Notes under the pieces: generated by a model
Database searches by the model: none
The model's input: only the letters and a program-made list of their open reading frames with translations
Told to the model about the DNA's origin: nothing
Part shown: positions 1 through 15,074 of the stretch, piece by piece
How positions within the stretch are numbered: position 1 is the stretch's first letter
Layout of the letters: each line of letters opens with the position of its first letter
Program-made: the position numbers and the translations under genes
DNA from: a virus
Strand: one strand, 5' to 3'
IMG/VR virus record: IMGVR_UViG_3300015202_000003
Span: 1-21,412 of that record
Length of the DNA stretch: 21,412 bases

Positions 1-99
1 AGGGACACTGCGTAGCTCGTGGAGAGATTGTCAGACTTTTTTCGGAAAGCATATCTCAGTGAAGCAAGAATCCTGCTGCTTTAGCAGTGGGAGTGTCAA
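1..99 (+). mobile_element. Right end (omega-RNA scaffold plus terminal hairpin, ending TCAA) of a second copy of the tnpB element, cut by the window edge
   Basis: Bases 1-99 are identical to 4891-4989 and identity stops right after GAGTGTCAA. GAAT precedes the hairpin CCTGCTGC-TTTA-GCAGTGG. Confidence 0.92.
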
Positions 100-191
100 G
101 AAACTATAAAAAACATTTAGGGGAATTTGGTGTTAAATAGACGTTCAATAAAAACGAGGTTAAATTCAAACAGAATTTTTAAATACGAGAA

Positions 192-2876: not shown

Positions 2877-2935
2877 TTTACGGTAGGAAAGTAAAATTTC
2901 GATTTTGATATTTTTATTTGGGGTATACTCTTTGT

Positions 2936-3034
2936 ATGAAAAGAACCACATCCAAAAGAACATAAAAATGGGGTGAAGAATGATAATAGGTTAGAGAATT
3001 TAGAACTTCTTTGTCCTAATTGCCATTCTTTTAC
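2936..3034 (+). pseudogene. Internally deleted HNH endonuclease remnant interrupted by the tnpB element (frame resumes at 4990-5044)
   Basis: ATG start MKRTTSKR, then in another frame 2961-3034 reads HKNGVKNDNRLENLELLCPNCHSFT. Removing 3035-4989 gives in-frame CHSFT-RQW. Confidence 0.8.
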
Positions 3035-3197
3035 ACTAAATTGTATTTGAAAGCCCGTTCCTTTAGGGACGGGATGAAAAATTTATCGTTGCGAAGCAGC
3101 GAAACTAATTAAAATTTGAAACTTATTTCTCCCATGTCCGTTTATAATAAGAAAGAAGTTGTTATAAAATGTTAATTGCCTCAATAACTTTAAAGTG

Positions 3198-3815
3198 ATG
3201 ATTACTACAACAAAAAAGCGGGAGATGGCTGATTATTATTTGAAAGGTTTCTCCCTTACAGAAACAGCTAAGGAATTTGGAATTAATTCAGCAACTGTTC
3301 ACAATATTCTCAAAAAGTTAGGGATACCCCGAAGAACTGTGTCAGAGGGAAATTCTCTAAAATGGTTGAATTCTGATTTTCGTGATAATCAGGTAGATAA
3401 GAGGGTTGGAGTTTCATCAGGGGCTAAAGGTAAAAGTTGGAAATTAAAACATAGGAAATACTCCCCAAAAATGATAGGTGCAGGTAATCCTCAATGGAAA
3501 GGTGGGGTTACTAAACTAAGTTCTTTAATTAGATCTTTACCAGAATATATATTGTGGAGAGAAAAAATATTTAAGAGGGATAATTGGACTTGTCAAATCT
3601 GTTCTGATAGAACTTGCGTAGGTAATAAAGTTATTCTTCATGCTGATCATATTTACCCACTTCATAAATTAATTGAGGAGAACCAGATTAAATCCGTTCT
3701 AGAAGCTATTTTATGTGAACATCTATGGGAAATAGATAACGGAAGATGTCTTTGTATAGATTGCCATAAAAAGACAGATACTTTTGGGAAAAATGCTAAA
3801 AAGCTTTCGATATAG
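3198..3815 (+). CDS. HNH endonuclease with N-terminal HTH and NUMOD3-like motif
   Basis: HTH (SLTETAKEFGINSATVHNIL), GNPQWKGG, CQIC, HADHI, NGRCLCIDCH. Alternative GTG start at 3195. Confidence 0.88.
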   Translation: MITTTKKREMADYYLKGFSLTETAKEFGINSATVHNILKKLGIPRRTVSEGNSLKWLNSDFRDNQVDKRVGVSSGAKGKSWKLKHRKYSPKMIGAGNPQWKGGVTKLSSLIRSLPEYILWREKIFKRDNWTCQICSDRTCVGNKVILHADHIYPLHKLIEENQIKSVLEAILCEHLWEIDNGRCLCIDCHKKTDTFGKNAKKLSI

Positions 3816-4905
3816 GATATACCCAAATAAAATACAACAAGATACGCTAAACAAAACGTTTGGGTGTTCTCGTTTCATTTATAACTGGGGCCTATCTCTT
3901 AAAATAAGCAGTTATATGAATACTGGTAAAGGATTGTCACGGTTTGCTCTTGACAAAGACCTTCCTAAATTAAAAGCAGAAAACCCTTGGCTTTCGGAAG
4001 TTCCTTCCCAAGTTTTACAACAAAGTTTGGTTGACCTCGATAAAGCCTTCACTAACTTTTTTAGAAAAACTACCAAATTTCCAAACTTTAAGAAAAAAAG
4101 AACAGATGCGTCTTGTAGATTTCCACAGGGTATCAAGGTTGATTTTGAAACTAACATAATATCTTTACCCAAACTGGGAAAAGTAAAAATTAAACTTAGT
4201 CGTAAATTTGTAGGCACAATTAAATCTTGCACAGTATCAAGAGGTTCTACTGGAAAGTTCTACGTATCAATTTTAGTAGATGATGGGGTCGGAGAAATTC
4301 CGAAACTTCCAATTCACCAAGACAGAGCAATTGGTGTTGATGTGGGACTTATTGATTTTATTACGACCTCTAAGGGAGAGAAAGTTAAAGCTCCTAAGTT
4401 TTATCGCGGTTTAGAAACTAAACTCAAGGAGGCCCAAAGGTTTGAGTCGAGAAAGAAGAAAGGTAGTAACAACAGAAAAAAAGCGAGACAAAGAGTAAAC
4501 CTTATTCACGAAAAGATTAAGAATTTAAGGTCTGATTTCCTTCATAAAACAAGCACTCGATTAGTTAATGAAAACCAAGTTATTTGTATCGAGGATTTAA
4601 ATGTGAAAGGAATGATGAAGAACCGAAAATTGTCTAAGAGTATCGGAGATGTGGGTTGGTCTGAATTTTTTAGGATGTTGGAATACAAATCTGAAAAAGT
4701 TGGAAAAACAGTTTTGAAGATTAATCGTTTTCAACCGAGTTCAAAAATATGTTCTTGTGGGGAAGTTAACAAAATCCTGACTCTTTCTGATAGAAAATGG
4801 ACTTGTTCTAATTGTAATTTGACTCACGATAGAGATGTATTAGCAGCACAAAATATTCTCAAGTTCGCTTTTTTAGAAAATTTAACGCGCAGGGACACTG
4901 CGTAG
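3793..4905 (+). CDS. tnpB: RNA-guided endonuclease TnpB
   Basis: N-terminal FRYRIYPN...FGCSRFIYN, RuvC-I GVDVG, RuvC-II IEDL, zinc finger CSCG/CSNC, RuvC-III DRDVLAAQN. The three acidic catalytic residues are intact. ATG at 3793 overlaps the HNH gene by 23 nt. Confidence 0.96.
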   Translation: MLKSFRYRIYPNKIQQDTLNKTFGCSRFIYNWGLSLKISSYMNTGKGLSRFALDKDLPKLKAENPWLSEVPSQVLQQSLVDLDKAFTNFFRKTTKFPNFKKKRTDASCRFPQGIKVDFETNIISLPKLGKVKIKLSRKFVGTIKSCTVSRGSTGKFYVSILVDDGVGEIPKLPIHQDRAIGVDVGLIDFITTSKGEKVKAPKFYRGLETKLKEAQRFESRKKKGSNNRKKARQRVNLIHEKIKNLRSDFLHKTSTRLVNENQVICIEDLNVKGMMKNRKLSKSIGDVGWSEFFRMLEYKSEKVGKTVLKINRFQPSSKICSCGEVNKILTLSDRKWTCSNCNLTHDRDVLAAQNILKFAFLENLTRRDTA

Positions 4906-5009
4906 CTCGTGGAGAGATTGTCAGACTTTTTTCGGAAAGCATATCTCAGTGAAGCAAGAATCCTGCTGCTTTAGCAGTGGGAGTGTCAAAAGGCAATGGA
5001 CGGCAGTAT
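4870..5009 (+). ncRNA. TnpB omega-RNA (reRNA): scaffold to 4989, guide from 4990 (AAGGCAATGGACGGCAGTAT); 5' end approximate
   Basis: TnpB guide RNAs are known to derive from the right end, overlap the tnpB 3' end and use the flank as guide. Scaffold is identical at 1-99. Confidence 0.75.
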
Positions 5010-9718: not shown

Positions 9719-9790
9719 GGCCTGTTAGCCTAACGGATAAGGCGACAAACTTCTAATTTGTTGATAGAGGTTCGATTCCTCTACGGGCTA
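9719..9790 (+). tRNA. tRNA-Arg(UCU), CCA not encoded
   Basis: Acceptor GGCCTGT/ACGGGCT, D stem GCCT/AGGC, anticodon arm ACAAA-CTTCTAA-TTTGT, T arm AGAGG-TTCGATT-CCTCT. Confidence 0.95.
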
Positions 9791-15025: not shown

Positions 15026-15074
15026 AGAGGAGGTTTAATTTGAAAGCCTCCTGCTTTAGCGGAGGGAGTGTCAA
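15026..15074 (+). mobile_element. 49-bp single-hairpin mini-element derived from the tnpB IS (left-end/right-end hybrid)
   Basis: TTAC (15022-15025), 17 nt, AAAG, hairpin CCTCCTGC-TTTA-GCGGAGG, then GAGTGTCAA. Confidence 0.8.

Follow-up and report, generated by a model that had tools for sequence, protein, structure and literature searches.

A probable homing endonuclease gene at the 5' end of tnpB in a tnpA-less IS605-type element of a large phage

The window analyzed in this study, a stretch of 21,412 nucleotides, corresponds to the initial 21.4 kb of an IMG/VR virus contig of 198,095 bp (IMGVR_UViG_3300015202_000003) with an estimated completeness of 88%. At positions 3035-4989 it carries an insertion sequence (IS) of the IS200/IS605 type, in which a gene for a helix-turn-helix (HTH)-HNH nuclease precedes tnpB, the gene for an RNA-guided RuvC nuclease. 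The locus probably consists of three nested selfish layers, that is, the phage, a tnpA-less IS605 element, and an HTH-HNH homing gene at the 5' end of tnpB. As judged by comparison with related elements, the HNH gene is most likely a homing endonuclease gene aimed at the tnpB 5' end, or in other words a selfish gene inside a selfish gene. The anatomy of the element, the intact catalytic residues of both nucleases, the recurrence of the gene pair, the presence or absence of the HNH gene at one site, and the independent transfer of the HNH cassette were observed in this analysis. A note made earlier from the letters of the window (hereafter, the original prediction) had described a tnpA-less IS605-type element with an HNH gene in place of the transposase gene and had proposed a dual-nuclease homing cassette or, alternatively, an HNH gene hitchhiking on TnpB; its observation is confirmed and its interpretation is partly supported.

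Both ends of the element show the geometry of IS608. On the left side, TTAC and the junction are followed by 15 nt, AAAG, and a hairpin (3054-3073; CCCGTTCC/TTTA/GGGACGGG), and on the right side GAAT (4958-4961) and a hairpin (4962-4981; CCTGCTGC/TTTA/GCAGTGGG) are followed by TCAA (4986-4989) and the junction. Subterminal imperfect hairpins, which characterize the IS200/IS605 family, are thus present at both ends, and AAAG and GAAT, located 5' of the hairpin feet, are reportedly the tetranucleotides of IS608. These ends, already pointed out in the original prediction, are more than chance, because four further copies in the genome share the order TTAC, junction, hairpin, TCAA, junction within unrelated flanks. 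The left end is homologous to another left end at the end of the contig (76% identity over 3039-3127, with compensated changes in the stem), and stem pairs covary between copies (G-C/T-A/C-G in LE1 vs C-G/C-G/G-C in others). The motif AAAG-hairpin-GATGAA is also found in the left ends of related elements on contigs L116, L118, L127, L128, and L132. Insertion 3' of TTAC without target duplication and with a precise right end was recognized for the full copy, the left end of a mini copy, and two micro copies. A search for Y1 tnpA gave no PF01797 match anywhere in the 198-kb contig, which is about 88% complete, in agreement with the earlier description of a tnpA-less unit; the window copy is therefore non-autonomous. 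Relatives (L127-135, L177-179) do carry Y1 tnpA. Taken by itself, the IS layer is an ordinary non-autonomous member of the IS200/IS605 family with IS608-type ends.

Inside these ends, the HTH-HNH gene (3198-3815) is followed by tnpB (3793-4905), both intact and, as originally predicted, overlapping by 23 nt, and the left hairpin is located about 720 nt from the tnpB start. The HNH and RuvC domains are on separate open reading frames (ORFs) in different frames, and not on a single polypeptide with HNH inserted in RuvC as in the IscB/Cas9 type. Promoter and terminator scans stayed at the chance level, and no group I intron or other intron family was detected in the Rfam scan of the window.

The HNH ORF matches PHROG 8446 'HNH endonuclease' (E 3.6e-20). 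Its N-terminal HTH was identified by Pfam HTH_23 and HTH_28 at residues 6-41 (E ~4e-5, just below the cut-offs) and matches the Sleeping Beauty PAI subdomain by profile; the structure model (pLDDT 82) contains helices at residues 5-70. The family signature CxxC..H..N..CxxCH is invariant in the 27-member alignment: C133, C136, H152, N182, C187, C190, and H191 are invariant and D151 nearly invariant in the 27 relatives, and all are present in the window protein. The closest solved fold, both by sequence profile and by fold, is the HNH endonuclease of phage GVE2 (5h0m), the best among Foldseek matches against PDB that were all sub-threshold. The label NUMOD3 in the original prediction could not be confirmed, as Pfam gave no NUMOD3 (PF07460) match in the window HNH and the domain was seen only in distant relatives. 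No close homologue was found in GenBank phages, the closest being at most 36% identical and most of these matching over the C-terminal half only. The combination of HTH and zinc-bound HNH fits the reading as a homing endonuclease.

TnpB matches Pfam PF12323 (HTH_OrfB_IS605), PF01385 (OrfB_IS605), and PF07282 (Cas12f1-like_TNB) as well as PHROG 506 (E 6e-130). The RuvC residues D183, E267, and D348 and the zinc-finger residues C322, C338, and C341 are invariant and C320 is nearly invariant in 41 relatives, and all of them are present in the window TnpB; the earlier statement that both nucleases keep their catalytic residues is therefore correct. Because of the overlap with the HNH gene, TnpB was shortened to 329 aa by the gene caller. 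The 108-nt right-end block is 100% identical to the copy at window 1-99 and homologous to the right ends of L127, L128, and L132. For the right end with its presumed omega-RNA, no Rfam family was matched in the window scan, and the RNA fold (z-score 0.2) was no better than that of shuffled sequences. The guide of TnpB corresponds to the DNA immediately 3' of the right end (see Table 1 for the putative guide of the window copy).

The insertion site of the HNH cassette was recognized by comparison of contig L127 with L177, an ordinary tnpA-tnpB element without HNH. The two are 99.8% identical over tnpA and 99.2% identical over tnpB from codon 8 on, apart from an insert of about 0.85 kb in L127 (3450-4297) that is absent in L177 and flanked by the repeat TATAAATT inside codons 8-10; the cassette is therefore located inside tnpB. 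In L127 the promoter and start codon once used by tnpB now serve the cassette, and tnpB itself begins at a new start that the HNH 3' end encodes in a different frame. The HNH proteins of 263 aa start with MKVxNxTYK, i.e., with the first nine residues of an ordinary TnpB. The L127 TnpB has hundreds of close relatives; among the best 120, 115 start with MK(V/L)(V/I)NKTY(K/R)F or a close variant (most of them 391 aa in length) and five start with M(D/G)(R/Q)INIHKVYKF (393 aa). The insertion point in relatives is after about tnpB codon 9, between TYK and FRIYP. A relic tnpB start was identified by protein-motif search (M..[KR]A[YF]KY[RKM]) at 39-89 nt 5' of the HNH start in L116, L118, L124, L137, and L142; a search at the DNA level for a duplicated tnpB start 5' of HNH was noisy. 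In some of these contigs (L116 3900-4000, L118 1590-1690, L137 2000-2115), TAnnTTTG-like boxes are located a few bases 5' of the ATG of the relic tnpB start and of the HNH start; the box, which we take to be the Bacteroidota-type -7 promoter motif, hints at the host phylum of the L116, L118, and L137 elements.

Comparison among relatives further indicates that the cassette is mobile independently of tnpA and tnpB. Between L127 and L128, a single mismatch was detected in 878 nt (L127 3451-4328, covering HNH with 50 nt upstream and 36 nt past its stop), and tnpA and tnpB are only 84-93% identical. TnpB is 91% but HNH only 66% identical between L127 and L132, and the order is reversed between L116 and L132 (HNH 72%, TnpB 50%). 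On the TnpB tree, HNH-linked and HNH-less genes are intermingled, so that five changes are needed, at least two of them forced by well-supported branches; L116, for instance, is the sister of the HNH-less L050 with 99% support. Presence or absence at a single site, short co-conversion tracts, and patchy spread, as read from the sequences of these relatives, make up the pattern of a homing endonuclease gene.

The detection of further HNH-tnpB pairs depended on the source searched. The IMG/VR scans gave 27 HNH and 80 TnpB matches, none with the pair, and pairs within IS ends, for which the original prediction had suggested a search of phage databases, surfaced only in a large protein collection. 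The full-length HNH relatives in this collection are about 205-263 aa in size and 47-57% identical, and in six of the nine for which the genomic context was inspected the HNH gene is directly 5' of tnpB (Table 1). A more distant relative is also paired with tnpB in a metagenome-assembled genome (MAG) of Nostoc (L142), and another in an Aquabacterium MAG (L141) is followed by the tnpB tail only. Since the pair recurs in other contigs, a one-off insertion is ruled out. In the nearest relative of the window HNH, P0025 (L180), tnpB has been lost, and what appears, with less certainty, to be a right-end remnant was noted. HNH-only derivatives with IS ends or tnpB stubs are represented by L118-123, L136, and L141. 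L127 and L128 share 2.5 kb including tnpA, HNH, and tnpB at 93% identity between different flanks, indicating that these three genes move as one IS. The elements of P0015 and P0021 also carry a divergent Y1 tnpA, and the HNH gene is thus a third gene and no substitute for the transposase; the view of an HNH 'in place of the transposase' is not supported, as relatives carry Y1 tnpA, HNH, and tnpB together and HNH is inserted in the first tnpB codons rather than at the tnpA position. Among 39 ORFs upstream of IMG/VR TnpBs examined by Pfam scan, most were unrelated neighbors, with five IS607 recombinases, one Y1 TnpA, and one weak HNH match. Contig L037, in which TnpB likewise follows an SLT gene, was considered as a relative and rejected as an unrelated phage. 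The gene next but one after the element in L127 (6945-7775) and L129 (3663-4493) has Hint/intein domains and helicase motifs, representing a further selfish insert in this phage region, near the L127-type element.

Table 1. Positions of features of the element, its copies, and HNH relatives. Locations refer to the window unless a contig is named; for relatives, the contigs are given.
Feature	Location	Strand	Remarks
Right end of another copy	1..99	+	Truncated by contig start
TTAC target tetranucleotide, left junction	3031..3034	+	Belongs to flank rather than element; same TTAC precedes the mini and both micro copies
Left end	3035..3078	+	15 nt, AAAG (guide-like) at 3050-3053, imperfect hairpin at 3054-3073, ATGAA
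Weak candidate relic tnpB start	3141..3162	+	ATG TCC GTT TAT AAT AAG.. (MSVYNKK), 54 nt 5' of HNH; tentative reading
HTH-HNH endonuclease gene	3198..3815	+	205 aa from ATG 3198 (GTG 3195 alternative), stop TAG 3815
Overlap of HNH 3' end with tnpB 5' end	3793..3815	+	23 nt, different frames
tnpB, RNA-guided RuvC nuclease gene	3793..4905	+	370 aa, ATG 3793 to TAG 4905
Right-end block	4882..4989	+	Last 8 tnpB codons, presumed omega-RNA scaffold, GAAT, hairpin, TCAA
Right flank, putative omega-RNA guide	4990..5005	+	AAGGCAATGGACGGCA; deduced from known TnpB mechanism
Micro copy, 49 bp	15026..15074	+	TTAC and junction, 20 nt left end, single hairpin, GTGTCAA and junction
Second micro copy (micro copies 48-49 bp)	G000:C1 90446-90493		Same build: TTAC and junction, ~20 nt, hairpin, GTGTCAA and junction
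HNH relative P0006	L116/117		tnpB next, 3-nt gap
HNH relative P0004	L124-126		tnpB next, 4-nt overlap
HNH relative P0010	L137/138		tnpB next, 17-nt overlap
HNH relative P0030	L140		tnpB next, 4-nt gap
HNH relative P0015	L127-131		tnpB next, 23-nt overlap; divergent Y1 tnpA too
HNH relative P0021	L132-135		tnpB next, 23-nt overlap; divergent Y1 tnpA too
HNH relative P0018	L136		First 33 tnpB codons after HNH (5' stub)
HNH relative P0008	L118-123 (16 contigs)		tnpB with in-frame internal deletion (M joined to THKRDELAANN..) and L116-type right end; L116-type left end upstream
HNH relative P0013			At contig end

Based on these findings, it is rather likely that the HNH family is specialized on the gene of the IS605 RNA-guided nuclease, entering it without intron or intein at about codon 9, bringing a spare start, and spreading in phages and bacteria. 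At the level of the IS, TnpB, with RNA from the right end and its flank, would cut element-free sites next to TTAC, and repair would copy the element back, with Y1 TnpA being supplied in trans for transposition. At the level of the cassette, the HNH protein would recognize and cut the conserved 5' end of an HNH-less tnpB near codons 7-12 (the sequence coding for YKYRIYP), and repair of the break from an HNH-carrying copy would install the cassette with short co-conversion tracts, which would explain its hopping between diverged IS copies. The cassette would use the old tnpB promoter and start, or leave both as a relic. Its 3' end would provide the replacement start of tnpB, which would share a transcript with HNH and begin next to the HNH stop or overlap it; because the cassette supplies this new start, tnpB should survive the insertion.

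The main rival to a homing gene is that HNH is a working accessory, that is, a second nuclease or DNA-binding factor which helps TnpB (one-strand cut, end processing) or partly replaces TnpA, and which is kept since it is helpful to the spread of the element. The recurrent tight coupling with tnpB, with ORFs overlapping or abutting, and the active site invariant in 27 relatives fit this role as well, and HNH is present in elements both with and without tnpA. It is nevertheless an unlikely explanation: the cassette has a mobility of its own, apart from tnpA and tnpB; of the 120 TnpBs most closely related to an HNH-linked TnpB, 115 lack HNH as judged by their native N-termini; the element 99% identical to L127 is a plain tnpA-tnpB element; and HNH is conserved in derivatives with deleted tnpB. 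The rival is weakened because most of the near-identical ISs lack HNH and because HNH persists without tnpB. On the same grounds, the cooperating dual-nuclease cassette of the original prediction is disfavored, and its alternative of an HNH gene hitchhiking on a TnpB element comes close to the pattern in relatives. In a bolder variant, HNH and TnpB may act jointly on one target, by analogy with the two nuclease domains of IscB/Cas9; the complex prediction for TnpB (A3) and HNH (A2) gave a score of 0.01, which speaks neither for nor against such a partnership.

Two other rivals concern the position of the HNH gene. It is very improbable that a free-standing phage HNH gene landed by chance between the left end and tnpB of a single copy, even though the phage contains another HNH remnant (2930-3034) and no recognizable relic tnpB start is present in the window; the same family occupies the same position in at least seven other diverged elements of different samples and in the Nostoc MAG, and the GenBank phage HNH genes are as distant as stated above. 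The original prediction held that copies without HNH would mean such a one-off event. The remaining copies in this genome indeed lack HNH, but these are gene-less mini and micro copies, and the recurrence of the pair elsewhere speaks against a single event. Still less credible is that HNH lies outside the mobile unit, with the true left end just 5' of tnpB and the hairpin at 3054-3073 derived from a decayed mini element. Typical tnpB-only elements do have the left hairpin about 100 nt 5' of tnpB (e.g., L037), and mini elements do occur in this genome, but no hairpin of the element type was found between 3195 and 3793, the block shared by L127 and L128 includes tnpA, HNH, and tnpB between different flanks, and L118 has a single unit composed of left end, HNH, tnpB stub, and right end. 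A left end downstream of HNH, named in the original prediction as its refutation, is at variance with the mini and micro copies, which place the left end upstream.

Several points weigh against the homing reading itself. Cleavage by the HNH protein and its target, the common transcript with tnpB, homing, and the same origin for the window copy are what we infer from sequence. The regular expression for the relic start motif found none in the window; the weak candidate at 3141-3162 is common to the left end of the mini copy. The window element has no close relative (best TnpB 56% and best HNH 57% identical), and the insertion history of the window copy is therefore deduced from other lineages; a search for an HNH-less allele of the element itself found none. 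In addition, the TnpB tree is the result of a quick search with SH-aLRT support only.

The mini and micro copies in the genome are devoid of genes. At the end of the contig, a diverged left end was found, with TTAC (197969-197972) followed by AACGAATTTGATTTGAAAG, a compensated hairpin, and ATGAA. In Logan contigs this left end is joined straight to position 4882, with a loose end ..TTCTAACA before TTAACGCGCA; the copy is therefore a mini element of 221 bp, composed of 113 nt of left end (197973-198085) and the last 108 nt of the right end. An exact search of the contig-end sequence in viral contigs gave no match. A regular-expression search for a second left end (TTGAAAG, 18-24 nt, ATGAA) gave the hairpin type of the element only at 3047 and 197985, the other matches, at 169470 and 47804, having an unrelated inner sequence. 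The micro elements (48-49 bp) look like products of recombination between left and right hairpins with loss of all that was in between. Since the copies share their ends in unrelated flanks, the boundaries after TTAC and after TCAA are fixed, with the left end upstream of HNH. A decayed right end was also detected at 195264-195326. It follows, with an internal deletion, a 160-aa ORF without PHROG match (G000:C1 194818-195326) that ends in ..FLENLTRRNTA and stop, the tail of the window TnpB; this ORF may represent a further gene that has taken the place of a tnpB.

The read depth of the Logan contigs was 62 for the 108-nt right-end node and 26.2 for the contig covering 141-4911. As single-copy flanks have the same depth as the latter, the genome does not contain the HNH-tnpB pair in a second identical copy. 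A second IS607-type serine-recombinase gene has its 3' end interrupted by the copy ending at 99; window 100-140 encodes ..NYKKHLGEFGVK and stop, compared with ..LYGLRNYKKSLVKHLGESDVK and stop at 192423-192506. In a variant from the same metagenome, ..GGTTTAC continues straight into position 100 (GAAACT..), and this looks like the uninterrupted site. The junction contig over 70-145 had a depth of 13, about half the phage depth, and the insertion ending at 99 therefore looks polymorphic. The last 10 nt of the contig (198086-198095) and its first 99 nt together form the 108-nt repeat at 4882-4989, with 1 nt shared, and the contig probably looked circular through this repeat. Closure through the repeat was, however, judged unsafe, since the flank at window 100 continues the IS607 tnpA and the left flank at the contig end does not; this evidence from the flanks suggests that part of the genome is missing rather than that the contig is circular. 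A third exit from the right end (TCAA, junction, CTGACCCGTTATATCC..) was seen in the run.

The host replicon of the element is a large phage, A+T-rich overall, that was recovered from an ice metagenome (run X1, the sole run with this phage; X2 and X3 contained next to none). The left flank of the element (window 2930-3034) derives from another HNH endonuclease gene, of which the C-terminal part remains (..HKNGVKNDNRLENLELLCPNCHSFT); this remnant is open for about 30 codons only and contains the TTAC used for insertion. A tRNA gene is located at window 9719-9790 (Rfam RF00005, 66.6 bits). A complete IS607-type element (G000:C1 191877-193680) carries a tnpA of the MerR-HTH/resolvase type together with a TnpB that shares 38% identity with the window TnpB, and a stand-alone third TnpB (G000:C1 107870-108931; 45% identical) has hairpin ends of its own (region 107048-109030) and is preceded by a strikingly G+C-rich stretch at about 107050-107740.

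As to its IS layer, the element is similar to IS608/ISDra2 and to tnpA-less IS1341-type elements in the subterminal imperfect hairpins, the insertion at TTAC without duplication, the TCAA right end, and a TnpB with RuvC D-E-D and zinc finger, and its gene-less mini derivatives resemble palindrome-associated elements. It differs from these in the presence of a third gene, for the HTH-HNH nuclease, between the left end and tnpB, in the absence of tnpA from the genome, and in the distance from the left hairpin to the tnpB start (about 720 vs about 100 nt). In ISDra2 and Geobacillus elements, cutting of element-free sites by the TnpB-RNA complex restores or spreads the IS (10.1101/2023.03.14.532601).

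As for the HNH layer, its behavior is that of a free-standing phage homing gene (T4 Seg/Mob, I-HmuI-like HNH with NUMOD/HTH). Such genes likewise encode a small HNH nuclease whose DNA-binding module is separate, and show presence or absence at a fixed site between near-identical alleles, short co-conversion, and patchiness. Unlike these, the cassette has a transposon nuclease gene as its host gene, and is inserted inside a coding sequence without intron or intein, re-supplying the start of the host gene. The link with another selfish element is shared with 'collaborative homing', as far as this is described in the review citing it (Bonocora and Shub 2009; Zeng et al. 2009, cited in PMC13565253). 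IStrons, in which a group I intron is fused to an IS605/IS607 element with TnpB (10.1101/2023.11.20.567912), also combine a tnpB element with a second selfish element located 5' of it, the two layers being in conflict or cooperating, but the passenger in the window is a protein-coding HNH gene and not a ribozyme. Arc of IS605 elements, a ribbon-helix-helix repressor without nuclease domain (10.64898/2026.09.24.754181), is similar as an extra small DNA-binding protein gene beside tnpA/tnpB; unlike Arc, the window protein is an HTH-HNH nuclease with a horizontal history of its own. According to the same review (PMC13565253, section 6.3), protein-guided homing enzymes are not expected for transposon restoration, and none is named in IS605. 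No published description of an HNH homing gene within IS605 tnpB was found by full-text search.

New in this study is a stage of the HNH family with tnpB intact and with a defined insertion site. The shortened call of TnpB at the overlap serves as a warning for annotation. TnpB and HNH form a natural set of two compact nucleases, RNA-guided and protein-guided, respectively, with predictable targets. The swapping of first codons would be a simple route for a selfish gene into a coding gene without splicing, and could explain some tnpB-less shells with nuclease genes as the end stage of HNH invasion. If the reading is true, IS605/TnpB elements, studied as ancestors of Cas12, would host a dedicated protein-guided homing gene, an association unreported according to the recent review.

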